In this document: positions 4,391-55,504 of the stretch, in pieces
How the letters are laid out: every line of letters starts with the position of its first letter
Position numbering within the stretch: position 1 is the first letter of the stretch
Source of the DNA: Clostridia bacterium
Lineage (GTDB): Bacteria; Bacillota; Clostridia; Peptostreptococcales; JAAYPU01
Assembly (NCBI GenBank): GCA_016278615.1
Contig: JADQBM010000013.1
Span: 2,607-66,606, forward strand
DNA length: 64,000 nucleotides
Reading direction: 5' to 3'
Program-made: the position numbers and the translations under genes
The notes under the pieces: model-generated
The model's database searches: none
Seen by the model: only the letters and a program-made list of their open reading frames with translations
What the model was told of the DNA's origin: nothing

Positions 4391-4763
4391 TTTTTTTTTA
4401 GTTAATACTACAGGCTGTTTTCGGACAGTCTGCCGTCCCCATTTGTCACCAAAACCGATATTCAATAACTTTTCCCGCATTGTTAACCCCTCTTATATGA
4501 ATCTTGGATATACCTGATTCACTTAGTCCGAAAGATATACTTATTGGTTTATTACTTTCATTGGAAATTCTTTATCCCAAAATATTAAATGCCTTTTTAA
4601 CTTGTTAACTTTTTTCGTTCGTTTTCCAGCATCCAGTTCTTGTTTATATCATAGTTTGTCAATTTGTCAAGTCTGACCCCATTTATTCTACTTCGTATAA
4701 TTCACTTAGGATAATATGACGCCCATTGCGTTGGAAAAACTCGTCGCTTTATTTTGAAGTTAA

Positions 4764-5861
4764 TCAATCGCCACGCAAGATTGAGCGAATTATTGAATTA
4801 GCTTCCTTAATCTCAGTACTATCATATAGATTGTCAATTCTAGTTTCTATAGTGCTAAATATCGGCAAGATAATATTTGTAATTTTGTTTTCGTACTCTT
4901 TGATCGTTGTTTCCAGCATCTCAGAAAGTAGTTGATATTCATTGCTATTAAGAAAAATCATAATATAATTTCTGAAATATGATAAGCGAATCGAGTTTAC
5001 TATTTCATAATTTCCTTCATCATTTACGGTAAAGTTACACATTGACAAAATTTGAGTATGTAATAGGCACAAAAGCAATCCCTTAATTATATCCAAACTT
5101 TTGTCCACTGGCGGGTCGTCTCCCAAACGAGAAAAAATATATGAATACGCTACCGAATCACAAAAGCATTCTTCTAACATATTTCCGTTGATCCGGATTT
5201 TATCTATAGATTCTGTCAATAACGAAATATAATCTTTGTCTTTGAATTTACGGGAATACTTAGAATAGACTTCTTCCAACACTTCATTTATCTCAATAAT
5301 AGCACTGTCACGCTCTTTTTGGTATTGTTTAAGGCGAAATAGCCAATGGCCAACTTCATGAGCCAAAATATAGTCTACTTGGATATCAATCCACCTATTA
5401 TTTTCATTTGTTGCCAGCAAATCTTTGCACTGAAAGTCATCTAACGCATTTGCATTTATTGCTGTATAAAAGGCGACCAACATATCTTTTGCAAGATATG
5501 TTTCTTCAGAAAACAATTGATATGAGAATTTCCATAAATCAGGCTCTGTATTTTTCTGATAAAGAAATACGGCATTAAACATTTTTAAGTGCTGAGCCAA
5601 GTATTTGTCATATAGTAAGTAATATTTTGTTTTACTATTCTGTTTAGCTGGAATCATGAGACTATACTTCTGATAAGAGCAAGAAATAATCAAGCTAATT
5701 TCCGGGGCATTTTTAAAGATAACAGATTCTATGATTTCATCAAACTTATCATACAAAGCCTGGTTTACATATTGCTTATCCGTATCGGGCAAAACCTTAC
5801 GTTGCTGTGCAATAAACTGCATTACGAAATTATCAAGCTCGTTCAACTTCTTCTCCCTCAT
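4764..5861 (-). CDS. HExxH (zincin-like) putative metallopeptidase, family not recognised
   Basis: 365 aa. Single HEVGH motif (ILAHEVGHWLF). A downstream acidic segment, NMLEECFCDSVAYSY, is a candidate third ligand. Overlaps the upstream ORF by 29 nt. Confidence 0.55.
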   Translation of the reverse strand: MREKKLNELDNFVMQFIAQQRKVLPDTDKQYVNQALYDKFDEIIESVIFKNAPEISLIISCSYQKYSLMIPAKQNSKTKYYLLYDKYLAQHLKMFNAVFLYQKNTEPDLWKFSYQLFSEETYLAKDMLVAFYTAINANALDDFQCKDLLATNENNRWIDIQVDYILAHEVGHWLFRLKQYQKERDSAIIEINEVLEEVYSKYSRKFKDKDYISLLTESIDKIRINGNMLEECFCDSVAYSYIFSRLGDDPPVDKSLDIIKGLLLCLLHTQILSMCNFTVNDEGNYEIVNSIRLSYFRNYIMIFLNSNEYQLLSEMLETTIKEYENKITNIILPIFSTIETRIDNLYDSTEIKEANSIIRSILRGD

Positions 5862-6174
5862 TTTCTTTTGGGCGTTCTAACAATTGGTTCAATATTACGA
5901 GCGCATTGTCCTCCGTTAGGCCCTTAATTTCTACATCCCCAACCTTAATATCTACTTTCCGTCTATTCTTTATCATTTCAGATAAGACAAGTGCTACCCC
6001 GGTGGCAATAGTAGGAGTTAAGGCTATGCCTAGCTGGAGAATTTCACTGGCTCCTGAAAAGGATTTAGGTTCAATAACGCCAGTAGACATATCACTTATT
6101 TCACTAAGGCGTTCTGCATACTGTCTGTCTTCTGAGTTCATTTCGAATGTTATTAACAATTTTTTCACATCCAT
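5833..6174 (-). CDS. EACC1-like (effector-associated constant component) small protein
   Basis: 113 aa. N-terminal strand-helix LITFEMNSEDRQYAERLSEIS, Gly/Ala/Thr-rich hydrophobic hairpin GASEILQLGIALTPTIATGVALVLSEMI, basic KNRRK, and a C-terminal beta-rich VDIKVGDVEIKGLTEDNALVILNQLLE. The architecture matches my memory of EACC1 and has not been checked against an HMM. Confidence 0.45.
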   Translation of the reverse strand: MDVKKLLITFEMNSEDRQYAERLSEISDMSTGVIEPKSFSGASEILQLGIALTPTIATGVALVLSEMIKNRRKVDIKVGDVEIKGLTEDNALVILNQLLERPKENEGEEVERA

Positions 6175-6407
6175 TCATAAGCATTAATTTACCATTACAC
6201 CCCTTAGAACTAACTTCTTTCGTTTGCCACACTCATGATAATCCTTGACTCTTCTATTCTCACACGCATGGCATGTATTATTATCTATGCATCTACCATT
6301 GTTTCTGTAATAAAAAAGCAAATCCTTCTAATCTCAAGGCCGTTTATATTTTTTAAATACATAAATATTGATAATACATCGTGCCAATCGAAACGTCCCC
6401 TTGGCTT

Positions 6408-6533
6408 ATTTATTGTACAGAAACCGGCACGTTTACACTTAATTTTTACTGATGGAATAAATTATGCTAAGCAAATCACCTACAACTAATCCCTAATTAA
6501 TCGTGCAAAATTAGGCATGTCCCTATTAGCCTT
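6408..6533. repeat. 126-bp direct repeat, copy 2
   Basis: See copy 1. Lies 235 nt upstream of the EACC1-like gene. Copy 1 lies 95 nt upstream of the CPBP gene. Confidence 0.9.
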
Positions 6534-6601
6534 CCAGTGCAAAATTAGGCATGCCCCTATTAGCCTTCCATTAGCCTTCCATAGCCTTCCATAGCCTTCC
6601 A
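6503..6601. repeat. nested tandem array: 2 x 34 bp (gtgcaaaattaggcatgYccctattagccttcca), then 11 + 10 + 10 bp (t)tagccttcca units
   Basis: Read directly: 6503-6536, 6537-6570, 6571-6581, 6582-6591, 6592-6601. Confidence 0.9.
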
Positions 6602-6733
6602 TATAAATTAACCGTACCTAAACTGTGTACCGAAATGGGGTCACTTCAACGTCCCCTTGGCTTCTTTACATTCATATTTTCTCAGATTTTGCAAGTTCGC
6701 TGTTCTACGATGTGGGAAGGTCCTCAATTCAGA

Positions 6734-6753
6734 GAGTGCCACGGATGGCACTC
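6734..6753. repeat. GC-rich palindrome GAGTGCCA-cgga-TGGCACTC, 16 nt 3' of the 145-aa gene
   Basis: Perfect 8-bp stem. Shares the core GCCACGGATGGC with 7954..7973. Confidence 0.85.
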
Positions 6754-6768
6754 CCCCCAGAAGAATAT

Positions 6769-7206
6769 TTATTTTTTATCTTTTACAATCATCTTTTCAA
6801 CCGTTTCTAACCCGCCATCACGCCAACCTTTGAATGTATATACTCTTTTGGTAATACTTCTTCCTGAACCATTCATACCTAGTGAAGTACCTTCTTCCTT
6901 AAGAGTAAGACCGATTCCACCTTCTCCGCTTTTATCATAGAATTCTTCAATAATAACTTCTTCGGCAGTATCAATCCTTCGGGCAATTGATATTTCCTGA
7001 GCAACCCTTGCCTGTGCTTCTAACATTTTGAGTGATATTTCTTGTCTTAATGCTTCCTCTTTCATCTCTTCAAGGCTTCCGTTGTTTGACACCGTATTTG
7101 ATTTATTTATAATCTTCTCTGTGGTATCAACAACTATCCAAGTGAGAGGGCTAGTTAATCTTAATATCTCTCTTGAAACTCCTAATATTTGATTCATATC
7201 TGCCAT
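6769..7206 (-). CDS. hypothetical 145-aa protein with a central coiled-coil-like segment
   Basis: Strong RBS GGGGAGGATTAACT before the ATG. Central EEMKEEALRQEISLKMLEAQARVAQEISIARRI, Gly-rich C-terminal part. No family recognised. Confidence 0.65.
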   Translation of the reverse strand: MADMNQILGVSREILRLTSPLTWIVVDTTEKIINKSNTVSNNGSLEEMKEEALRQEISLKMLEAQARVAQEISIARRIDTAEEVIIEEFYDKSGEGGIGLTLKEEGTSLGMNGSGRSITKRVYTFKGWRDGGLETVEKMIVKDKK

Positions 7207-7251
7207 AGTTAATCCTCCCCAATATAATGCTTTAATTATTTCTGATTGGTT

Positions 7252-7923
7252 TCAATAATAAATTGCAAAATAAAAAACATCTTTCTCATTTCCTAAAAAA
7301 TAACAGTTTAGCTCTTGGTCTGCTTCTCCAATTAAATTAACAGGTAGTGGTTTATATGCACTGCTAAAATTATAGACTAAGTCGGTGGTATATGTAGGAA
7401 CTGTCATCTTTCTTAAGAATGGAAAGTAACAAAGTTTCCGTTCACTCGCTAATGGTTTGCTTCCGCTACCTTCACCTAATTGAATCAATTGTGGAAATCG
7501 TTCAACACAGTTAAACCACCCGATAATGAAAGCTCTTTTACCTTTTTTTCCCTCACCTATTTCTTGCAATAACCAATCAAAATCTTCTTGATATACAATC
7601 CAGTTCTTGCTCGCAGAGCTTGTTCCAGATGCACTTCTCCAATTTTTAAGGTATTTGACTTCTATCTTAAAATCTTTTGATTCTATATCAATATCATGGT
7701 TAACTTTGCTTTTTGTTCTATTGCCACTATCTCCAACCGTATAATGAGCCATCTGCTTAAATGGATAGCCGACACGAACACATATATCCATTTCGTTAAA
7801 TTTCTCATCTGCAATTTTCTTCAGCTGATTCCTTTCCAAATCACGATATTGCTCATTAAATTCATCAATAATAAAAAGGCAAGTGGATAATAGGTATTGA
7901 TCAATCGTTGGATTTAATCCCAT
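7252..7923 (-). CDS. PD-(D/E)xK (restriction-endonuclease-fold)-like protein
   Basis: 223 aa counted from MGLNPTIDQY. Candidate catalytic strand pair HDIDIESKDFKIEVKYLK (D...E-x-K). RBS GGAGTGGG 8 nt upstream of ATG 7923. The longer track ORF (to 8028) would read through the 7954..7973 palindrome and lacks an RBS. Confidence 0.5.
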   Translation of the reverse strand: MGLNPTIDQYLLSTCLFIIDEFNEQYRDLERNQLKKIADEKFNEMDICVRVGYPFKQMAHYTVGDSGNRTKSKVNHDIDIESKDFKIEVKYLKNWRSASGTSSASKNWIVYQEDFDWLLQEIGEGKKGKRAFIIGWFNCVERFPQLIQLGEGSGSKPLASERKLCYFPFLRKMTVPTYTTDLVYNFSSAYKPLPVNLIGEADQELNCYFLGNEKDVFYFAIYY

Positions 7924-7953
7924 GAAAATCCCACTCCATTCTTTTATATAATT

Positions 7954-7973
7954 GTGCGCCACGGATGGCGCAC
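7954..7973. repeat. GC-rich palindrome GTGCGCCA-cgga-TGGCGCAC, 31 nt 5' of the PD-(D/E)xK gene
   Basis: Perfect 8-bp stem with the same loop and core as 6734..6753. Confidence 0.85.
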
Positions 7974-8109
7974 CCCTTCCAATGTCGCAGAACGTTCTTA
8001 AATTGCCGACGTTCACTCTGACCCACAACGCCTTTGATTGAGAGAGTGAATGTGCGAAGCGAACGGCAATATATTGTTAAGCGAAGTAATTACGGAAACT
8101 GAAATAACA

Positions 8110-8457
8110 TCAGATAGTTATCCTATACCATGGTGGTCTACCATCTGCTTGAACAGTCCTCAAATAGTCTAGTACTGCATTATCATTCTCAATTGCACAC
8201 TTCTTAATCTCCCTAATAAAGTAATCAAGTTGACCAATTATTATATATCTTGCCTTACTCCCGTGATGTGCAATTTCTCCGCGTACTTTTACAAATTTTT
8301 CTATTTCATCGTCCTCAATACTCCATGCACTAGAAATCTTTCTTATTCCCAAATATCTCTTATAGCACTTATTAAGATTGTCAACCTTTGGTGTGTTAAA
8401 TTGCCTCATAGTCCCTTTGCAAATATCGGTATATATTTCTTTCCAACCTTTATTCAC
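8110..8457 (-). CDS. HEPN-like domain protein (Rx4H motif); possibly the 3' half of a frameshifted gene
   Basis: 115 aa with a GTG start and no convincing RBS. Helical protein with VRGEIAHHG (R-x4-H), as in RiboL-PSP-type HEPN RNases. Its reading frame is already open from 8499, overlapping the end of the upstream ORF. Confidence 0.5.
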   Translation of the reverse strand: MNKGWKEIYTDICKGTMRQFNTPKVDNLNKCYKRYLGIRKISSAWSIEDDEIEKFVKVRGEIAHHGSKARYIIIGQLDYFIREIKKCAIENDNAVLDYLRTVQADGRPPWYRITI

Positions 8458-8491
8458 AGCTTTAATTATGCTTTCTTCTTTGTTCAGGTCT

Positions 8492-8986
8492 TTATAGTTT
8501 CATCTCCATAAAAGGGATATATCTCTTGTAACATGTATCAATAAATTTTAAATACTTATCCTTTTTGAGAATCTCTTCCAAAGTATAAGTATCAAATTTG
8601 GTAAACAGATTTTCAATGTTAAATTCCTCAAACTCAAGATTGACTTCAACAAATCGGTCTAAATCATTGATTTGATTAGTATCTTGTATCCGTTTGTGAG
8701 ATGGTTCAGCCCGGCTGGTCTCCAAAGGTAACTTTAATGGATCTATTGCTCCCCCTATTTTCGAGCTAGACTTTTTATGTCCACCGCAACCATTACAGAA
8801 TGTTTTATCGCGTTCAATTAACCCTTGAGAATTAAGCTTAGTACACACCTGAAAAACTGTTTGCCTAGGGATAATATCACAGTTTTTGGATAAGCAGTCG
8901 TCACAATACCAACCCCCATGCGTTTGGAGATAATCTAGGATAGTATCTCTGTGTGTCAAAACTATGTCCCCTCTTTCCACTGTCAT
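8492..8986 (-). CDS. winged-helix-like plus CxxC...CxxC (Zn-ribbon-like) N-terminal domain protein; possibly the 5' half of a frameshifted wHTH-HEPN gene
   Basis: 164 aa. DTILDYLQTHGGWYCDDCL...QVCTKLNSQGLIERDKTFCNGCGG, followed by a helical C-terminal region. Confidence 0.45.
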   Translation of the reverse strand: MTVERGDIVLTHRDTILDYLQTHGGWYCDDCLSKNCDIIPRQTVFQVCTKLNSQGLIERDKTFCNGCGGHKKSSSKIGGAIDPLKLPLETSRAEPSHKRIQDTNQINDLDRFVEVNLEFEEFNIENLFTKFDTYTLEEILKKDKYLKFIDTCYKRYIPFMEMKL

Positions 8987-9062
8987 CTATGATCAAAGCA
9001 CCCAGTCAAACTTGAAACTTATACCTTTAAATCATGGCATGTATAAGTACGGTTTCATATAA

Positions 9063-9090
9063 CTTATATATTCACGACCTATGCCGTCAA
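9063..9090 (-). promoter_or_regulatory. candidate sigma-A promoter for the wHTH gene (TTGACG - 16 nt - TATAAG)
   Basis: Minus-strand reading of 9090..9063. About 75 nt upstream of ATG 8986. Confidence 0.35.
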
Positions 9091-9109
9091 TACTTCTTAA
9101 TTAGAGATG

Positions 9110-9128
9110 TTGCGACGTATGTCGGCAA
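9110..9128. promoter_or_regulatory. imperfect palindrome TTGCGAC-gtat-GTCGgCAA just upstream of the candidate -35 (possible operator)
   Basis: Read directly. One bulged G. Confidence 0.25.
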
Positions 9129-9466
9129 TATCTTTATAATGAATCATCTTCCATTATAAACATAACCGCCATAACCCAACTCACCCAAAAACAAAAACCA
9201 ACCTAACAACTTCCAAAGTCAGACTGGTTCCATTTCACTCTTCATAATTTTATTCCCCTCGTATCATTAATCTTTATCCCTAACTACATTGTACCCCATA
9301 ATTTCCCAAAATTCAAATATTATGTCTGAATCTGTCAATCGCATCAAAAAACAAAACCACCCCAACAACATCATTGTCAAACCGTTCTTATAAGCAGGTG
9401 GACCCGGGCCTTTTCTACACTAAAGGAGATTTTGCCTTAAGTATAGCAAAATCCACCTCTGCCTCG

Positions 9467-9519
9467 GAGATGAAATATGTATTTTTGTAATGACTTTGAG
9501 AATTCGACTCAAAAATTGG
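9467..9519. repeat. left arm of an imperfect inverted repeat of about 50 bp
   Basis: gagatgaaatatgtatttttgtaatgactttgagaattcgactcaaaaattgg, compared with the reverse complement of 9940..9990, gaagataaaatatgtattttctacattccattcggattcgaaaaaaattgg. Confidence 0.75.
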
Positions 9520-9891
9520 CAGTCACGAAGACGAAATTAGAAATTTCTTTCTTATTGCATGAGACCTGCGACGTAATCAGAGATTACTGCTAGGGCTTCA
9601 AGATAGAAGATGACTTGGAAAACCGTATATCCAACAGGACGTTGGCTTTATCTAAAAAAAATTGGCAGTCACGAAGACGAAATTAGAAATTTCTTTCGTG
9701 TTGCATGAGACCTGCGACGTAATCAGAGATTACTGCTAGGGCTTCAAGATAGAAGATGACATTAAAAATCGTATAGCCAACAGGACGTTGGCTTTATCTA
9801 AAACAATTGGCAGTCTCGAAGACGAAATTGAAATTTCTATCTCGTTGCATGAGACCTGCGACGTAATCAGAGATTACTGCTAGGGCTTCAA
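9515..9891. repeat. three tandem copies (146, 145 and a partial 86 bp) of a hairpin-rich non-coding unit
   Basis: Units start at 9515, 9661 and 9806 (attggcagtcWcgaagacgaaatt...). Each has GAAATT-aga-AATTTC and GTAATC-aga-GATTAC hairpins. The two full units also have GCCAAC-aggac-GTTGGC. No ORF of 60 aa or more in any frame between 8987 and 9991. Confidence 0.9.
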
Positions 9892-9939
9892 CGCATGGAC
9901 GCCGAATGTGAGCGTTAGGTTTTTAATGACAGATTTTTT

Positions 9940-9990
9940 CCAATTTTTTTCGAATCCGAATGGAATGTAGAAAATACATATTTTATCTTC
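9940..9990. repeat. right arm of the inverted repeat; abuts the rnz stop codon (9992)
   Basis: See the left arm. Confidence 0.75.
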
Positions 9991-9991
9991 T

Positions 9992-10912
9992 TTAATCAAA
10001 ATTTATCCTTTTTATCATTAAATCTTTCCCTGTAATTGTATTGCCAAAAATATTTTGAGCATTATCAATATACAAATCAGGATTCTGAAGTGAGGGGCTG
10101 TAGTGGGTTAGCCAAAGCTCCTTGGAATGACTTTTAGCAGCTAAAGCTGCAGCTTCAGAAAAGATCATATGTTTATTTTTAATTGCTTTGTCAAGTTGAT
10201 CATTTTCTCCGTACATTCCTTCACCTATCAAAAGATCGGAGCCTCTACAAAAATCAGCAAGTTCTTCCGTTGGTCTGGTATCAGTGCTGTAAGTTACTTT
10301 CAATCCTTTACGTTCTCTTCCTAAAACCATCCCTGGCTCATATCGTTTCCCCTCGTGCTCTATTATCTCTCCTTTTTGCAAACGATTCCAGAACCTAATG
10401 GGTATATTGCCTTTTTTTGCTCTTTGAACATCAAACTTTCCGGCGCGTCTTATTTCTAAACTGTAGGATAAGCATGCAATGGTATGATCCACCGGAACAC
10501 TTTTTATGATAATATCTCCAACATAATTTGTTGATAAATTTCCATCCGATAATTCAATAAGTATTATTTCAAAAGGCAGCTCCGGTGCGATAATGGTTAA
10601 TGCTTTTACAACTTCAATTAAGCCGGGAGGGCCATAAATCTTCAAGGGTTCTTCCTTACCGCTGTTTCCTAACGTCAACAAAAATCCTGGCAACCCTGCA
10701 ATATGATCTGCATGATAATGGGTAAAGCATATGGCGTCTATAGACTTAAACCCCCATCCGGTCATTTTGATTGGAAGCTGAGTGCCTTCCCCACAATCAA
10801 TAAGAATCATTTTTCCATTATATCGATACAGCAGAGCCGTTAATCTTCTATCTGGAAGTGGCATCATCCCACCACATCCCAATAAGCAAACCTCTATCAT
10901 AGTACGCTCCAT
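9992..10912 (-). CDS. rnz: ribonuclease Z / MBL-fold metallo-hydrolase
   Basis: 306 aa. HYHADH (HxHxDH) motif and short-form RNase Z length. N-terminal LLGCGG. Confidence 0.75.
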   Translation of the reverse strand: MERTMIEVCLLGCGGMMPLPDRRLTALLYRYNGKMILIDCGEGTQLPIKMTGWGFKSIDAICFTHYHADHIAGLPGFLLTLGNSGKEEPLKIYGPPGLIEVVKALTIIAPELPFEIILIELSDGNLSTNYVGDIIIKSVPVDHTIACLSYSLEIRRAGKFDVQRAKKGNIPIRFWNRLQKGEIIEHEGKRYEPGMVLGRERKGLKVTYSTDTRPTEELADFCRGSDLLIGEGMYGENDQLDKAIKNKHMIFSEAAALAAKSHSKELWLTHYSPSLQNPDLYIDNAQNIFGNTITGKDLMIKRINFD

Positions 10913-10988
10913 TTCAATACGTTTGTTATCCGTTTCTAAAATAAGTATAAACAGATGAGCGTAATGTATGCAACTCTAAAAGCTTTTA

Positions 10989-11726
10989 TCATAGCGTCTT
11001 ACTAATTTCATACATAGTCTCAAGAGCTAAAATAATCTCTCTTTTTTCCCCTTCTTCAGCCATATTTTCTAATCCCACGTAACTGTTTATGCCATCCTTA
11101 ACATCTTCTTTGTATAAGACAACGTTATTCAGTATAGATCCTACCTTTACACCGCGCAATCTTCCTAAAGTAAGTAATGTAGCTGTTTCCATGTCGCCCC
11201 CTAGGACGCCTTTTTTGCTCCAATACTCGATAACCTCATTTTCATTATCGATATAAAAAGAATCGTGACTTCTTACGATGCCTAAATGATGTGGATAATT
11301 TAATTCCAATGCCATTTTCTTGAGATTTTCAACTATTTCGGAATTTGAAACAGCAGGATAATTCTCTTCTATGTACATTTTTGATGCGCCATCTTCTCTA
11401 ACTGCACCTTCGGCAATAACCAGATCTCCTATTGCAATGTTTTGCTGATACGCACCCAGACTTCCTATTCTAATAAAATATTCGCCACCACACGCTACTA
11501 GCTCTTCTAAAGCAATACACGCTGATGCCCCACCAATTCCTGTTGAAATTACAGTTACATCCATTCCTTTATATTTGCCTTTTATACTTTTGAACTCTCT
11601 GTTAAAAGCAATTTCTTCATATTCATCTAAATACTTTGCAACTCTATCCACTCTGGCTGGATCACCAGGGAGCATAACCATTTTGGCTACGTCTTCTCTT
11701 TTACATTGTATATGTGGCTGTTTCAT
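10989..11726 (-). CDS. nucleoside phosphorylase (PNP_UDP_1 family, uridine-phosphorylase-like)
   Basis: 245 aa. LPGDPARV, STGIGGAS, RIGSLGA and GGDMETATL blocks align with Udp/DeoD-type phosphorylases. Confidence 0.8.
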   Translation of the reverse strand: MKQPHIQCKREDVAKMVMLPGDPARVDRVAKYLDEYEEIAFNREFKSIKGKYKGMDVTVISTGIGGASACIALEELVACGGEYFIRIGSLGAYQQNIAIGDLVIAEGAVREDGASKMYIEENYPAVSNSEIVENLKKMALELNYPHHLGIVRSHDSFYIDNENEVIEYWSKKGVLGGDMETATLLTLGRLRGVKVGSILNNVVLYKEDVKDGINSYVGLENMAEEGEKREIILALETMYEISKTL

Positions 11727-11745
11727 AACGATTCCTCCTCTTCAT

Positions 11746-12366
11746 TTAATTATTCGGAGTTTTTTTTGAAAATTGACATTTTACTAAGTATACATAATCA
11801 TAGTCTTTTAAAACATCTGGCTCATCAACATAATGCTGGTTCCCATATATGGACATGCCATTGCCATCTTCAAACAGGAAGGTACCCATAACAATCTCCT
11901 TTTCAGCCATAATTCCCTCAGGTTGATTTAGTGCGCCTCTACCTACAGAAAACTTACCGTTTGTTTCAAACTCATTTTCTGTTTTTGTACTAAAGCTGAA
12001 TACCCCGTTCCCATCTTTATGAGAAATTTTCCATTGGTAGTTAGCCTCTCTGTCAACGACTATGGCGACAAGGCCTTCATTGGAATTGAGTCGCGAGTGC
12101 ATTCTATTCATTTCTCCTTGCAATTCACCGTCTTTATAAAATTCGATCCAAATAGAAATCGTCTTAAATGTGTCATCAATCTGATACTCAAAAATATCAA
12201 TATCACTTTGAACACCTAATAATTCTATGATATTCGTTTCATTTTCATCCAATTCAGCTAAATGAATCTCATTTGTAGACGAATCCTCTGGTGGTTTCTC
12301 TTTACTACAACCTGTAATACTAAGAGTTATGATTAAACATAGTAAAACACAAAAATGTTTTTTCAT
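11746..12366 (-). CDS. lipoprotein of unknown function
   Basis: 206 aa. Signal peptide with lipobox LSITGC. Confidence 0.7.
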   Translation of the reverse strand: MKKHFCVLLCLIITLSITGCSKEKPPEDSSTNEIHLAELDENETNIIELLGVQSDIDIFEYQIDDTFKTISIWIEFYKDGELQGEMNRMHSRLNSNEGLVAIVVDREANYQWKISHKDGNGVFSFSTKTENEFETNGKFSVGRGALNQPEGIMAEKEIVMGTFLFEDGNGMSIYGNQHYVDEPDVLKDYDYVYLVKCQFSKKTPNN

Positions 12367-15282: not shown

Positions 15283-16410
15283 TTAACGGCTTATTAACGC
15301 AGCATATCTCTCTAATATATCTACAACCTGATCATGGGGCAACGCGGGGACAAAGTTGTTATTACGCCCGTACATGGATTCTGCCGCTACCATTGCATTG
15401 ACAATAGCTTCTTCCACCGCTTCAGCCGTCGCCTTATAAAAAGGATCAATTTTTTCGTCTGAAAGCATTTCAATAGTTGATATTGAATAACTAAAGACAT
15501 TTTCATTTGCTGTTGAAAAGGCAATAAAAATATCACCTGAATTGTTTTGAAATCCACCACCTAGGTTTCCAATACCCAAGGGTACTCTCTTACAGATTTT
15601 ACTCAACTGCCAAGGCATAAAAGGTGCGTCCGTAGCCACAACAACAATAATGGATCCATCTCCAGGTTTCGGTGCCAAATGGTCGGTTATCTGCTCATGC
15701 CCTATAATTTTTTTTCCAAAGGGTATTCCAGCGATTCTAAATTCTTCTCGTGTTCCGTGATTCGCCTGTACAAGAACACCGATCGTATAATCCCCTTCTT
15801 CTATCTTGATTTTTCTTGACGAAGTGCCAGTTCCTCCTTTAAAGCTATGGCATCGCATTCCTGTTCCGCCCCCTACATTTCCTTCTTTAACAAAACCACC
15901 TTTCGCTGTTTCAAGAGCTTCGACAGCATTCTCTTCTTTAACCATAAAGCCATTGATATTGTTCAAAACTCCGTCGAAGGTCTCTCCAACCGTTGGATAA
16001 AAGTAGCCAAGGCCCTTAACTTCTTCGCCGTCTTTAAATACTGGATAGTAAAAATCATTTTTTATGATCCACTTTGAAGTTGCATCTCTTACAATACCTA
16101 CACTGTTTGTATTAGTAATCATTATAGGCCCATGCAAAAAACCGGAGTCATCAATCCAGTGGGTACCAGTCAACTCACCATTGCCATTTAAATCAAATCT
16201 CCCGGCAAATAGTGCACTCCGTTTTTTTCCTCTGGGTAAAATACAGGTAACACCTGTTCTCGCGAACTCGGTATTCATAGTTGTATCTTCACTGGGTTCT
16301 CCCAGAATAATTGTTGAAAATCCAACTTCTACTCCGTCCACGTCCGTTATTGAGTTGTACTTTCCGCATTCCCCCTCAAATGGGATTCCTAAATCACGAG
16401 CTCTTATCAT
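15283..16410 (-). CDS. P1 family peptidase (DmpA/BapA-like, S58 Ntn aminopeptidase), paralog 1
   Basis: 375 aa. RARDLGIPFEG, NVGGGTGMRCHSFKGGTGTSS, VVATDAP. Clearly paralogous to 24662..25786 along its full length. Confidence 0.85.
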   Translation of the reverse strand: MIRARDLGIPFEGECGKYNSITDVDGVEVGFSTIILGEPSEDTTMNTEFARTGVTCILPRGKKRSALFAGRFDLNGNGELTGTHWIDDSGFLHGPIMITNTNSVGIVRDATSKWIIKNDFYYPVFKDGEEVKGLGYFYPTVGETFDGVLNNINGFMVKEENAVEALETAKGGFVKEGNVGGGTGMRCHSFKGGTGTSSRKIKIEEGDYTIGVLVQANHGTREEFRIAGIPFGKKIIGHEQITDHLAPKPGDGSIIVVVATDAPFMPWQLSKICKRVPLGIGNLGGGFQNNSGDIFIAFSTANENVFSYSISTIEMLSDEKIDPFYKATAEAVEEAIVNAMVAAESMYGRNNNFVPALPHDQVVDILERYAALISR

Positions 16411-24661: not shown

Positions 24662-25786
24662 TTATTTTATTAACTTTCCATATTTAGTCATTATTGCTAT
24701 CACTTGATCATGGGGTAAAGCAGGAAGATAGTTTTTATCTCTGCCCATCATACTTTTTGCAGCGACCATTGCATTGACAATAGATTCCTCAACAGCTTCA
24801 GCAGTCGCCTTATATAATGGATCCATCCTTACATCAGAAAGCATTTCAACCATAGATGATGTATAGCTAAAAGCATTTTCGTTTGCTACAGAAAAAGCAA
24901 TAAAAATATCTCCTGATCCATTCTCATAACCGCCACCTAATCGACCTATTCCAATAGGTACCCTTTTGCATAACTTGCTTAATTGAATGGGTGAAAGGGG
25001 TGCATCGGTAGCAACCACAACAATAATGGATCCATCTCCTGGTTTAATTCCCAGGGTATTGATGATTTGATCACAATTATTAATTTCTTTTCCTAATGGA
25101 ACACCGGCTATTTCAAGTTTTTCTCTGGTTCCATGGTTCGCCTGTACAAGTACACCTACTGTATAGCCACCTTCTTCTTCGGTCAAAACTCGAGAGGAAG
25201 TCCCTGTCCCTCCTTTAAAGCAGTGGCATCTCATTCCCGTGCCACCACCTACATTACCTTCTTGAATAAGCTCAGTTTTAGCATTATTCAACGCTTCATA
25301 AACATGATTTTCCTTTACTTTAAAACCATTTATGTTATTTATTAAACCATCATATGTCTCACCGACTACAGGATAGAAAAATGCTGTTTCCTCTACTTCT
25401 TGATCATTATGATAAACTGGATAGTAATACTTATTTTCGAGCATCCACTTTAAAGTTGCATCCCTAACAATACCAACACTGTTTGTATTGGTAATCAATA
25501 CAGGTCCATGTAAAAAACCGGAGTCATCAATCCAATGGCTGCCAGTAAGCTCTCCGTTGCCATTTAAGTCATGCCTTCCAGCAAAAACCATGCTTCTTCT
25601 CTTCCCTCTTGGAAGAATTGCAGTAACCCCCGTCCTGGCAAAATCAGAAAACGAGTTTACATAATCTTCCGGTTTTCCTTGTATTATTGTACTATATCCT
25701 ACTTCAACACCTTTCACATCTGTGATGGCATTATATTTTCCACATTTGCCTTCAAATGGGATTCCTAAATCTCGTGCTCTCTTCAT
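24662..25786 (-). CDS. P1 family peptidase (DmpA/BapA-like), paralog 2
   Basis: Start moved to MKRARDLGIPFEG (RBS GGAGGAAATT). The track start at 25807 is a TTG. Colinear with paralog 1. Confidence 0.85.
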   Translation of the reverse strand: MKRARDLGIPFEGKCGKYNAITDVKGVEVGYSTIIQGKPEDYVNSFSDFARTGVTAILPRGKRRSMVFAGRHDLNGNGELTGSHWIDDSGFLHGPVLITNTNSVGIVRDATLKWMLENKYYYPVYHNDQEVEETAFFYPVVGETYDGLINNINGFKVKENHVYEALNNAKTELIQEGNVGGGTGMRCHCFKGGTGTSSRVLTEEEGGYTVGVLVQANHGTREKLEIAGVPLGKEINNCDQIINTLGIKPGDGSIIVVVATDAPLSPIQLSKLCKRVPIGIGRLGGGYENGSGDIFIAFSVANENAFSYTSSMVEMLSDVRMDPLYKATAEAVEESIVNAMVAAKSMMGRDKNYLPALPHDQVIAIMTKYGKLIK

Positions 25787-25861
25787 AATTTCCTCCAGAT
25801 TGTCCAAATCTATTACTTATATATATTCTCTTTTTCTTAAACTACAGTCATGTAAAATTAG

Positions 25862-31707: not shown

Positions 31708-32688
31708 TTAATCTTTATTTATCAAATCTTTATAACATATGATATTTTCAATAGCCGCGGCTTTTTTTACTGCATTCAAAATCGCATTTTCAATACATTT
31801 GACAGCCATTACTTCTACAAGCATCATGCTTGCTTCAACCTCACCAGTAGCCATAGTAAAAAGCATATCACCATCTGACATGGTATGCACGGGTTTTATC
31901 GTACGTGCCATTCCGCAATGCCCCACTGATGATATTTTCGAAGCTTGAGATTTTGTTAGTTTTGCATTGGTGATGATAACACCTATTGTTGTATTTCCTT
32001 TCTCTGCATTTTCTGACTCAAAATGCTCAAGAATATATTTTTCTGTATCTATAAATTTATTTTTCTTTGTATTCAGTGCTCCTGCAATGATTTCAGATGT
32101 AGATGGATCAATTACATCCCCGATTGCATTTACCACCATGATTGCTCCAACATACAAATCACCTTTTTTCAGACAAAAGCTTCCCAATCCGCCTTTCATG
32201 GCAGACTGAAGACCAAGAATTTTGCCTACTGTTGCTCCTGTTCCAGCACCAATGGTTCCGTCTTTCCATGGTTTTTTCAGGAAGGCATTCTGACACGCCT
32301 TGTATGCCATATCTTCATCAGGTCTTGACTTAGAATCTCCTACACATAAATCAAATATGATGGCCTGTGTGACATAAGGAATGATAATGTCCCTGATTTG
32401 ATATCCTATGCCATTGTCTTCTAAGAAACGCTCCACACCTCCTGCTGCATTCAATCCATAACTACTGCCTCCCGAGATCAAAACCGCATTACAAGCATCC
32501 GGATCATTTCTTGGATCCAAATTATCCAGGTGCCTCCCACCCGGAAGCCCCCCTCTTACATCCACACCTGTAACTGCATGTTCCATCTTGTTACATATAA
32601 TTACAGTACAGCCTGTTGCTCCTTTATAATCTTGTTCATGTCCAATTAGAAAATCTTTTATTTCTGATAGTTGTATTTCCTCCACCAT
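31708..32688 (-). CDS. P1 family peptidase (DmpA-like, shorter and more divergent), paralog 3
   Basis: 326 aa. GCTVII, GGSSYGL, GAGTGATVGK and GVIITNA blocks typical of S58/P1 peptidases. Confidence 0.8.
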   Translation of the reverse strand: MVEEIQLSEIKDFLIGHEQDYKGATGCTVIICNKMEHAVTGVDVRGGLPGGRHLDNLDPRNDPDACNAVLISGGSSYGLNAAGGVERFLEDNGIGYQIRDIIIPYVTQAIIFDLCVGDSKSRPDEDMAYKACQNAFLKKPWKDGTIGAGTGATVGKILGLQSAMKGGLGSFCLKKGDLYVGAIMVVNAIGDVIDPSTSEIIAGALNTKKNKFIDTEKYILEHFESENAEKGNTTIGVIITNAKLTKSQASKISSVGHCGMARTIKPVHTMSDGDMLFTMATGEVEASMMLVEVMAVKCIENAILNAVKKAAAIENIICYKDLINKD

Positions 32689-43856: not shown

Positions 43857-45281
43857 TTAAACAGGCAAACCGAAGAAATGTTTTTTATCCTTGTCGATTG
43901 ATTCAATATATTCGGTTCGTTTTTTATCATAATAGAAATAACAAATGACTCCGAGTAATATTACTGCTCCCAAGAAGTACCACACTGTTAGTGGCACTGT
44001 TTTGACCTGATAGTAAAACATGTACGCTGCCCAAACACTTGCAATAATATTAATAATCGGATAGAAAGGTGTTTTAACCGGTCGGATAATGTCTGGCTCT
44101 TTTTTCCTTAATATCATATGAGATATAGGAATTAAAATATACATAAACATTGCAGCCATAACTAAAGCAAAAGCATAGCTGACAATTTCACGCTGAATTG
44201 AACCTAAAATACCTAAAGCGAAGCATAGCACGATGCTTGCAACCGGAGTTTTAAATTTTGGATGCAAATAAGAGAAAACTTTTGGTAATCTTTTATCACG
44301 TCCCAAAACATAGATGGAACGGGTAAATCCAGTAATAGCCGATAAGCATGTGGCAAAAGCACTTAATATAGAAGCACCTAATATAAACTTGACAACCGAT
44401 TTAGGCAATAGATCCGGTGCCATTTGCATTGCTGCAGCAGGAATATTTAATTCTGTTCCAGACATGGTCGTCCAAACAGAATAAGGAATAATAGCAACCA
44501 TGCCTAAGGCACATAATATCTGGACAGTACCCATACCCATACTTCCCATTGTTTGAATATATCCTAATCTAGCACGACTTGATTTAATTTCCTCTGCAAG
44601 CATTGGAACAATTTCAAAACCAACCATATACGTAATGGTCAAACCAGCTAATGCAAAGAATCCCCCAAGCTTAGCATCAAAAGTTGGAAATAGGAAGTCA
44701 CTGTTCATATTTGTTGCAGCAAGTGCCAAAAATTGTGCCGGATCTCTTACCATAGGAACAACAACTAATAATGTAGTTCCAGTAATTGCAACAATACTCA
44801 TGAACACTTGTACCATTGTTGAAAACAAAATGCCACGGAACACGATAAGATGGAAAAGTATCGCCACGATGATGCTCCAAATAGTAGATGAAATCTGTAT
44901 TTCTGGAAATATCCAATTAAGATAAGCACCGGCTACAGATAAATTAAGTGGGATCCAGAATGCAAAGTTAAATGCATAAACAAAAAATACTATAAATCCA
45001 GGAAATTTTCCAAATGCACGGGAGATAAATACATATTGACCACCTGAATAAGGAAAAGTACTTACAAGCTCCCAATATACTAACGACATAATTATAACAA
45101 AAATCATGGCACCTAAATAGCCATATACCGTTAGTGGTCCACCATTTTCAACTATGAATGAGTTTGTAATATAAAAATCTCCACCTGTTACACCGCCAAT
45201 TAACCAGGGAATCAACATCCACCATGGTACTGAACGGGATAATTGCTGACTTTCTAGTGAAACTCTATTGTCATTTGACAT
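43857..45281 (-). CDS. APC superfamily amino-acid/polyamine permease
   Basis: About 474 aa, 12 TM. Start moved to ATG 45281, preceded by AAGGAGGA. The track start is a TTG. Confidence 0.85.
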   Translation of the reverse strand: MSNDNRVSLESQQLSRSVPWWMLIPWLIGGVTGGDFYITNSFIVENGGPLTVYGYLGAMIFVIIMSLVYWELVSTFPYSGGQYVFISRAFGKFPGFIVFFVYAFNFAFWIPLNLSVAGAYLNWIFPEIQISSTIWSIIVAILFHLIVFRGILFSTMVQVFMSIVAITGTTLLVVVPMVRDPAQFLALAATNMNSDFLFPTFDAKLGGFFALAGLTITYMVGFEIVPMLAEEIKSSRARLGYIQTMGSMGMGTVQILCALGMVAIIPYSVWTTMSGTELNIPAAAMQMAPDLLPKSVVKFILGASILSAFATCLSAITGFTRSIYVLGRDKRLPKVFSYLHPKFKTPVASIVLCFALGILGSIQREIVSYAFALVMAAMFMYILIPISHMILRKKEPDIIRPVKTPFYPIINIIASVWAAYMFYYQVKTVPLTVWYFLGAVILLGVICYFYYDKKRTEYIESIDKDKKHFFGLPV

Positions 45282-55375: not shown

Positions 55376-55504
55376 AATGAAAAATGAATAATGAATTCCA
55401 TTTTTCGGGCAATCATAAATCGCCCCTACGCTTCTCTAAACTTTTATAAGGACAACCGCAAGGGTCGTCCCTACACATCTCTAATCTCTGATCTCTAATC
55501 TCTA
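55376..55504. repeat. mosaic intergenic element: AATGAAW heptamers, GCAA-loop GC hairpin ending CCCTAC, and an ATCTCTR heptamer run
   Basis: 55376-55397 aaatgaaaaatgaataatgaatt. 55450-55470 ggacaaccgcaagggtcgtcc. 55477-55504 atctctaatctctgatctctaatctcta. Confidence 0.85.

Follow-up and report, generated by a model that had tools for sequence, protein, structure and literature searches.

The gap after the RNase Z gene (rnz) of an uncultured Clostridia bacterium (assembly GCA_016278615.1) holds a hairpin-rich tandem array framed by inverted repeats, and the question is what this locus represents: separate small RNAs, a mobile repeat, or a single structured RNA. The window analyzed is the whole 64,000 nt stretch of contig JADQBM010000013.1 (positions 2,607–66,606, forward strand), and positions given below are those of the window unless another sequence is named. 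The feature at 9424–9990 is probably one compound copy, rearranged and amplified internally, of a dispersed, modular repeat specific to this lineage, the simple copies of which are TwoAYGGAY elements (Rfam family RF01731) of the Bacillota type.

The array is found at positions 9511–9891 by Tandem Repeats Finder, with a period of 146, 2.6 copies, 94% matches and a score of 669. A repeat search places the unit copies at 9509, 9655 and 9800 (spacings of 146 and 145), and the likeness between units stops at 9891. The period and the divergence of the third unit had been correctly described in an earlier note made from the sequence alone. A 47 nt core, TTGCATGAGACC...GGGCTTCAA, is the same in all three units and has matches in none of 100 shuffles. 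The hairpin GTAATC-AGA-GATTAC is likewise present in each unit, as had been reported, but the other hairpins are less regular than was claimed. GAAATT-AGA-AATTTC is found in units 1 and 2 and is disrupted in unit 3 by a 1 nt deletion. The outer CACGAA/TTCGTG stem, which was ascribed to every unit, is confined to unit 2, and the GCCAAC/GTTGGC stem of the two full units is complete in unit 2, while unit 1 has TCCAAC and 5 bp.

The imperfect inverted repeats that frame the array are located at 9466–9519 and 9940–9990, in agreement with the earlier description. Their ends (9468–9485 and 9971–9988) are 18 nt with 94% complementarity, and an inner complementary block, ATTCGA..AAAAATTGG, extends the inverted repeats beyond these ends. 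The closing stem of the minimum-free-energy fold consists of the full arms paired with each other. When up to two mismatches are allowed, the 18-mer arm pattern has three matches in the window, i.e., both arms exactly and positions 44886–44903 with two mismatches; no shuffle gave three matches. The last base of the right arm is 9990, and the rnz ORF (open reading frame), stop codon included, occupies positions from 9992 onward, which agrees with the single base of separation noted before. The absence of ORFs of 60 aa or more at 8987–9991 also holds; the sole ORF of at least 40 aa in this region is one of 41 aa at 9034–9159. The array and its inverted repeat frame are real and non-random. An independent assembly of the window genome (Logan SRR24974067) is syntenic with the window, and its contigs end inside the array from both sides. 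This confirms the junctions of the left arm with the first repeat module and of the last repeat module with the right arm (L-a1 and a3-R, see below), and it also means that the number of units is known from the window assembly alone. Protein P0242 is identical to the window RNase Z from residue 5 onward.

Four simpler copies of the element are present in a relative, an uncultured Clostridia genome whose RNase Z (P0001) is the closest other one and is 89% identical to that of the window. P0001 is found on contigs from three samples, and the 1 kb gap after rnz has the same sequence in all three. Copies A and B are in this gap (locus L002), and copies C1 and C2 are in locus L007, which was found in the same metagenome by a single metagenome scan with the conserved motif of the R side. 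Copy A has the structure L-b-R, where L and R are the arms and b is the second half of the window unit. Copy B is L-a-R, where a is the first half of the unit, and has two extra palindromic hairpins. C1 and C2 are b-type copies in tandem and in the same orientation, and the R end of C2 is a few nt from the stop codon of an opposite-strand MutY-like ORF. All copies known here thus number five, at three loci in two genomes, and the simple copies are approximately 210 nt plus a 5' hairpin. With respect to the asymmetric outer flank, the internal orientation is the same in all five, and all are followed by a T-rich tail (CTTTT...) on the + strand; after the stem on the - strand come CTCC.GAGG and then the small flanking hairpin. 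The extra hairpins of copy B are near-perfect palindromes at internal positions (L002 4830–4883 and 4691–4746; AACTCTATTCAATCATTGATTGAATAGAGTT and GGGACA...TGTCCC). They suggest that hairpin insertion is another way in which the elements vary.

Comparison with Rfam connects the simple copies to a known candidate RNA. C2 has a score of 54.0 bits (E = 7e-8) and C1 a score of 45.7 bits (E = 5e-6) over model positions 1–168 of RF01731, which has a gathering score of 43 bits; copy A, with 32.5 bits, is under the gathering score. The matches of A, C1 and C2 are all on the strand equivalent to the window + strand. C2 is in turn homologous to the b modules of the window (nhmmer E = 4e-6 and 2e-4), which relates the window copy to bona fide members. 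In the cmscan alignments GCCAAC-A-GGAC-GTTGGC falls on the first AYGGAY hairpin and GGC-ATGGAC-GCC on the second. The outer stem of the model aligns with the inner parts of L and R, and the terminal 18–20 nt inverted repeat lengthens this stem past the model. The window copy has hairpin 1 twice (CAGGAC), hairpin 2 once (ATGGAC), a modules between them, and the basal stem. The 146 bp unit is module b, i.e., the inner stem segment and hairpin 1 with loop CAGGAC, plus a lineage-specific two-hairpin module a, and the inverted repeats of about 50 bp are the two strands of an elongated basal stem as in TwoAYGGAY members of Bacillota.

TwoAYGGAY was described as a probable RNA that is not cis-regulatory, from human gut samples, gamma-Proteobacteria and Clostridiales (Weinberg 2010, PMC2864571). 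In the canonical motif a common basal stem bears two hairpins in sequence, each with an AYGGAY loop, and this stem is elongated in the Bacillota matches; the family is multicopy, occurs in doublets and with flanking repeats, and shows a 'mobile-element-like' expansion, with a median of 11–23 copies per genome in Pseudomonas species groups other than P. aeruginosa and a maximum of 202 in one strain (bioRxiv 10.64898/2026.09.22.753630). The simple copies share with this family two successive (Y)GGAY-loop hairpins, a GA/GA internal loop beside hairpin 2 and the long basal stem, and the copies of the relative are also multicopy, in doublets and associated with repeats. There are differences as well. 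In the window copy hairpin 1 is duplicated and is parted from hairpin 2 by a new 82 nt module with two AGA-loop hairpins, and in copy B module a replaces hairpin 1. The doublets here are tandem and not divergent, and the large repeats, which in Pseudomonas are outside the RNA at its 3' side, are inside the basal stem.

On the + strand the order of the window copy is L-a1-b1-a2-b2-a3-(h2)-R. Just outside the left arm is a 5' flanking hairpin (9424–9458; GGAGATTTTGC-loop-GCAAAATCC, then ACCTCT) that folds separately; copies A, C1 and C2 have it beside their left arm, and in copy B it is truncated. The left arm L (9466–9519), the 5' strand of the elongated basal stem, contains the terminal 18–20 nt inverted repeat, the inner inverted repeat ATTCGACTCAAAAATTGG and a block, TGTAATGACTTTGAG, that is conserved and unpaired, and is homologous to the L arm of C2 (nhmmer E = 8e-15). 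Module a1 (9520–9601) has the hairpin GAAATT-AGA-AATTTC and the invariant 47 nt core, which contains GTAATC-AGA-GATTAC; its homologue, with 94–96% identity, is the cargo that copy B carries in L002. Module b1 (9602–9647) consists of an inner basal-stem segment and TwoAYGGAY hairpin 1, CCAAC-AGGAC-GTTGG at 9631–9645. It has the diagnostic bases of subfamily A and is identical to copy A at 43 of 45 positions. The linker TTATCTAAAAAAAATTGG (9648–9665) repeats the inner end of the L arm.

Module a2 (9666–9747), the one with the outer CACGAA/TTCGTG stem, precedes module b2 (9748–9793), in which hairpin 1 is AGCCAAC-AGGAC-GTTGGCT at 9775–9793 and the diagnostic bases are those of subfamily C. Module b2 pairs with the inner R arm (inverted repeat 9748–9768 with 9920–9940). 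A second linker, TTATCTAAAACAATTGG (9794–9810), leads to module a3 (9811–9891), where the 1 nt deletion is in the first hairpin and the 47 nt core is unchanged. The GC-rich subterminal block (9892–9939) contains TwoAYGGAY hairpin 2, with loop ATGGAC at 9895–9900, followed by GCGTTAGGTTTTTAATGACAG. This block is kept in all five copies, and in C1 and C2 it aligns with the second AYGGAY hairpin of RF01731. The right arm R (9940–9990; nhmmer E = 7e-18 against C2) is the 3' strand of the basal stem; the T-rich sequence after it and the rnz stop codon overlap. All of these parts are on the + strand. The rnz gene (9992–10912, - strand), with Pfam domain Lactamase_B_2 and RNase Z homologues, is convergent with the + strand of the element. 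Since b1 has the bases of the A type and b2 those of the C1/C2 type, the two units are a mosaic of two subfamilies and not a simple recent duplication.

Several observations weigh against the assignment to TwoAYGGAY or against an RNA role. The Rfam scan, a check proposed in the earlier note, finds C1 and C2 of the relative, but the window copy has no RF01731 match at E ≤ 10 in a scan of 9400–10000, nor in scans of 8000–12000 or of the whole window. Nowhere in the window copy do hairpins 1 and 2 adjoin, and its hairpin 2 stem is weakened to CGC/GCC. In copy B the loop of hairpin 2 is ATGGGC, without GGA. Covariation comes from three sequences only. A structure-free comparison of the arms gives G.T counts of 4/4/4 vs A.C counts of 2/3/0, a weak strand asymmetry; a strand call from G.U vs A.C counts without structure prediction was tried and is too weak to decide, and the counts would give only a weak preference for the + strand. 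A consensus scan shows no sigma-A-type promoter upstream on the + strand, and none is conserved among copies; its expression is therefore inferred from the family assignment. The copies are few and from two genomes, with one locus in the approximately 75 kb of the window genome covered. The searches for other copies and for target-site duplications, both also proposed earlier, gave the four copies of the relative and no duplication consistent across copies. Finally, no parent insertion sequence (IS) or transposase is present in the ORFs scanned (approximately the first half of the window), and no empty site was seen.

The searches for more copies covered a range of sequences. With each copy as query, nhmmer shows no further copies in the 64 kb window and approximately 11 kb of extensions from the same genome (L010, L011, L012 and L013), and none in two more distant RNase Z relatives, L005 and L006. 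An Rfam scan at gathering scores of L005, L006, L010, L011, L013 and L014, a third relative, gave nothing. The core 22-mer has one match among 185,579 species genomes, in a coding region of a Saccharibacteria metagenome-assembled genome; the match has no surrounding similarity and is taken as a chance match. The metagenome scan with the R-side motif returned only contigs of the relative, and no copy was found in viral contigs (three scans) or in plasmids and phages (distant BLAST). A protein database compared with the spurious ORFs translated from the element gave only the ORF of copy B itself.

The + strand of C2 has a delta G of -102.8 kcal/mol (z = -9.4), vs -81.6 kcal/mol (z = -6.7) for the - strand. 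A, C1 and C2 together give a consensus fold of 79 pairs, in which 93.7% of cells are paired. There are compensatory changes at 4 pairs; shuffles have 1.9 +/- 1.1, and a value of 4 is reached by 31 of 500. Across these three sequences the changes are suggestive but not decisive. Between the two genomes rnz has 87.8% nt identity, and 67 of 98 fourfold-degenerate sites (68%) are identical. The matched parts of the element are identical at 303 of 332 positions (91%; binomial p ~2e-23 vs the rnz fourfold sites), and the 47 nt core of module a differs at one position. An identity of 91% against 68% at neutral sites implies purifying selection, copies that evolve in concert, or recent spread in each of the two lineages; a neutral relic is not compatible with these figures.

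Another explanation is that the element is purely a selfish DNA repeat of the MITE (miniature inverted-repeat transposable element) or BOX type. The arms would then be ends recognized by a transposase or recombinase, the Rfam match would show no more than that RF01731 itself describes a mobile palindromic repeat, and any RNA would be incidental. This explanation is possible but clearly less likely than membership in an RNA family. The element is small (524–570 bp), has terminal inverted repeats and no transposase ORF, as is characteristic of a MITE, and is found at several loci. Copies are in doublets with shuffled modules, the unpaired blocks of the arms are kept in sequence and not in structure, the + strand promoter scan is empty, and the preprint cited above points to a mobile-element-like expansion of TwoAYGGAY. 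Against it, the only candidate target-site duplication is a TAACAC pair at C2; none is seen at the remaining copies, and the left boundary of the element is uncertain. The lack of a parent IS or transposase in the ORFs scanned (approximately the first half of the window) and of an empty site counts here too. The 91% vs 68% identity demands recent activity or conversion in both lineages, and the stem is kept intact by compensatory changes. The suggestion in the earlier note of a MITE-like element with amplified cargo is the closest of its readings: at other loci the cargo between these arms is different, and the array consists of two amplified internal modules.

Among known repeats, the element can be compared with pneumococcal BOX elements, which are 67–637 bp, differ from strain to strain and carry internal modules in tandem with an end module on each side (PMC3049150). 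The same arms enclose b, a, or (a b)2 a, which is the BOX type of arrangement of end and internal modules, as an architectural analogy only, in which kinship in sequence is not expected. As in boxA-(boxB)n-boxC, two different end modules pair together and internal modules are present in tandem in variable number; the elements are also intergenic, clustered, of similar size range and of varying length between genomes. The internal module here differs in that it is 146 bp and itself composite (a + b), the copy number appears low, and no target-site duplication or related IS was found. With MITEs and REPINs (PMC10969869) the element has in common its small non-coding form, terminal inverted repeats, an imperfect palindrome over its whole length, intergenic copies at gene 3' ends, and a hairpin kept by compensatory changes. 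It differs in that no target-site duplication, parent transposase or RAYT is seen, in its asymmetry (an extra 5' hairpin on one side) and in the few copies observed.

A further explanation places the function on the opposite strand, as a 3' untranslated region element that is co-transcribed with rnz (or mutY) and whose stem and hairpins terminate or protect the 3' end of the mRNA, as has been proposed for REP, ERIC and BOX. This is unlikely, but it is consistent with the position of the R end, 1–20 nt past the stop codon of a - strand gene in all three gene-adjacent copies. The - strand also has terminator-like sites (TAGCCAAC..GTTGGCTA then TACGGTTTTT; GGATTTTGC..GCAAAATCT then CCTTT) and folds well in C2, as the z value above indicates. 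However, the strand of the Rfam model is the opposite one, the + strand fold of C2 is more stable by 21 kcal/mol, the U-runs of the - strand are offset from the stems, and neither copy B nor copy C1 follows a gene directly.

The reading preferred in the earlier note, tandem independent small RNAs of about 105 nt, one for each 146 bp unit with its own promoter and weak terminator, is very unlikely. There is a periodic TTGGCA...TAGAAA motif, the GCCAAC hairpin is followed by TTTATCT in two units, and Rfam models the family on the + strand. But the proposed promoter (TTGGCA-16-TAGAAA) does not come up in the consensus scan, has no T at position 6 of the -10 hexamer and is altered in unit 3; no promoter-like site is present at the unit starts, and the array does not show the promoter and intrinsic terminator per unit of LhrC-like arrays. 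The only terminator-like site on the + strand is weak and coincides with hairpin 1 of b1 (9631–9645), and in the single-module copies the same hairpin is followed by TAAGCGACC with no T-run. Folds of single units against shuffles give z values of -0.3 and -3.1 (+ strand) and -1.3 and -2.8 (- strand), so that unit 1 folds no better than shuffles. In the homologous copies a and b appear as cargo within one closing stem. What is left of this proposal is that the whole element, on its + strand, belongs to a candidate RNA family, RF01731, while the promoter, the TTTATCT tail and the unit folds do not support separate units.

A role as repeat RNA antitoxin of a type III toxin-antitoxin system for the HEPN-like gene, or as an invertible phase-variable switch between the inverted repeats, is extremely unlikely. 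Tandem direct repeats upstream of a nuclease-like ORF, and an intergenic segment bounded by inverted repeats beside variable genes, are the features that recall such systems. Repeats in type III toxin-antitoxin systems are approximately 36 nt. The unit here is 146 nt and does not resemble the short repeats that are co-transcribed with an endoribonuclease of the ToxN/AbiQ type. The next ORF is approximately 480 nt away, has its own conserved promoter-like sites, and belongs to neither a Pfam nor a PADLOC family; its similarity to HEPN is weak and fragmentary (E = 1e-5, below the Pfam cut-off). The neighbors in the relative are unrelated, and the association is not kept there. As to a switch, all five copies are in one orientation relative to the outer flank, and no recombinase domain is present in the ORFs scanned (approximately the first half of the window). 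The possibility of peptide coding was also examined and rejected. Each a module ends an ORF in ...LHETCDVIRDYC*, and the sole core substitution of copy B is synonymous; the N-termini differ between units, there is no visible ribosome-binding site at units 2 and 3, and the ORF in copy B is approximately 20 codons, with none of 25 aa or more having that ending.

The element is in a setting of ordinary Clostridia genes. Nearly all window genes are on the - strand, the GC content is approximately 35%, the proteins are of metabolism and transport, and the named RNase Z homologues are from uncultured Clostridia/Eubacteriales. Between the element and the next gene is a 204 nt non-coding stretch (9151–9351, - strand) that is 92% identical to L002 4989–5191 and is kept although the downstream genes differ completely between the genomes. 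It has promoter-like sequences TTGATG-17-CATAAT and TTGAAT-17-TACAAT, an ORF of 8 codons (MKSEMEPV/MKNEMEPV) preceded by the ribosome-binding site GAGGGG, and a tail rich in G and T. A TATAAT box marks the end of the stretch, whose fold is not significant (z = -0.9). A 28 nt C/A-rich direct repeat, CAAAAACAAAAACCAACCTAACAACTTC, at 9186–9213 and 9345–9372 (82% alike) brackets the promoter and micro-ORF region. L002 does not have the repeat copy nearest the element, which was apparently deleted between GGTGG(A)TTTT repeats.

Past the 204 nt stretch the genes are unrelated (window ~4700–8990 vs L002 5351–10357), and the genes upstream of rnz differ too. The window side has orphan ORFs without family matches and the weak truncated HEPN RiboL-PSP fragment (8110–8457). 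Neighbor ORFs of 164, 115, 258, 145, 113 and 365 aa have no PADLOC matches, and the five that were scanned against NCBIfam have none there. The L002 side has an 804 aa AAA_13 protein, the neighbor of the element there, and then SbcD- and SbcC-like genes. The region beside rnz looks like a variable, possibly defense, island. In L007 the element neighbors are the MutY-like ORF and a 94 aa ORF, and between C1 and C2 (1300–1570) is what looks like a type I toxin-antitoxin module. It consists of a small hydrophobic ORF on the - strand, MSTYESLSLMILFSMLIVTILKFRKR, behind the ribosome-binding site GGGGGGTGG, and a convergent unit on the + strand that resembles a small RNA, whose promoter is TTTACT-16-TATAAT (with TG) and whose strong terminator is at 1393–1423. 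There is a weak match to Rfam BsrG, 32 bits against a gathering score of 55.

Elsewhere in the window, a heptamer repeat, AGAGATT/AGAGATC x4, is at 55467–55494 (- strand) just after infB. It has the 11-mer ATCAGAGATTA in common with the core of module a, probably by chance, and a Logan contig of the window genome ends near it, at ~55458. Three paralogous genes for Peptidase_S58 (DmpA-type aminopeptidase) at 15283–16410, 24662–25807 and 31708–32688 are interleaved with genes for a TRAP transporter, an oligopeptide ABC transporter, an M20 peptidase and an amidohydrolase, and a sigma-54 activator adjoins. This region looks like a large cluster for peptide or amino-acid utilization.

If the element is a TwoAYGGAY member, its history and role may be outlined as follows. 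Modules would have been exchanged and amplified by recombination or slippage between copies, like boxB in pneumococcal BOX, and the family would spread or persist as a non-autonomous mobile element. The + strand would be transcribed, convergent with rnz, to give a heavily structured RNA of approximately 550 nt. The predicted RNA would display GGA loops on three hairpins (two CAGGAC, one AUGGAC) and AGA loops on six, and the basal stem with the U-rich tail may serve as transcript terminator at the rnz stop codon. The motif bound by CsrA has two strong matches in TwoAYGGAY, and Gardner and Eldai proposed a CsrA-binding small RNA in Clostridia, as a hypothesis only (PMC4333381). CsrA sequestration is the sole published functional hypothesis for TwoAYGGAY and is hypothetical for the window copy. 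The several GGA-loop hairpins, and a hairpin number that changes by module duplication, recall CsrB, RsmY and RsmZ; unlike these the window copy has only three GGA loops, the loops of module a are AGA, and the RNA is a predicted one. It is doubtful, but conceivable, that the element encodes a functional + strand RNA whose complement of protein-binding hairpins is adjusted as cassettes are gained, lost and amplified in tandem within an unchanging basal stem, that the window copy acts as a sponge of higher valency for CsrA or another RNA-binding protein, and that module a provides a second ligand site.

TwoAYGGAY is a widespread candidate RNA whose function has been hypothetical since 2010. The preprint describes Pseudomonadota copies as multicopy, extended and repeat-flanked, and Bacillota members only by their longer basal stem (bioRxiv 10.64898/2026.09.22.753630). 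This locus adds that Clostridia copies are also modular and dynamic, with canonical hairpins that are separable, can be swapped for another cassette and can be amplified inside a constant stem. It carries the warning that rearranged TwoAYGGAY members escape covariance models. It also makes natural variants with one, two and three GGA hairpins available for the question of a CsrA sponge. Sponge RNAs of the CsrB class have been identified only in Gammaproteobacteria (PMC4333381). If the functional proposal is true, a Csr-type sponge RNA would for the first time be known outside Proteobacteria, and the element would exemplify a regulatory RNA whose evolution resembles that of a modular mobile repeat.

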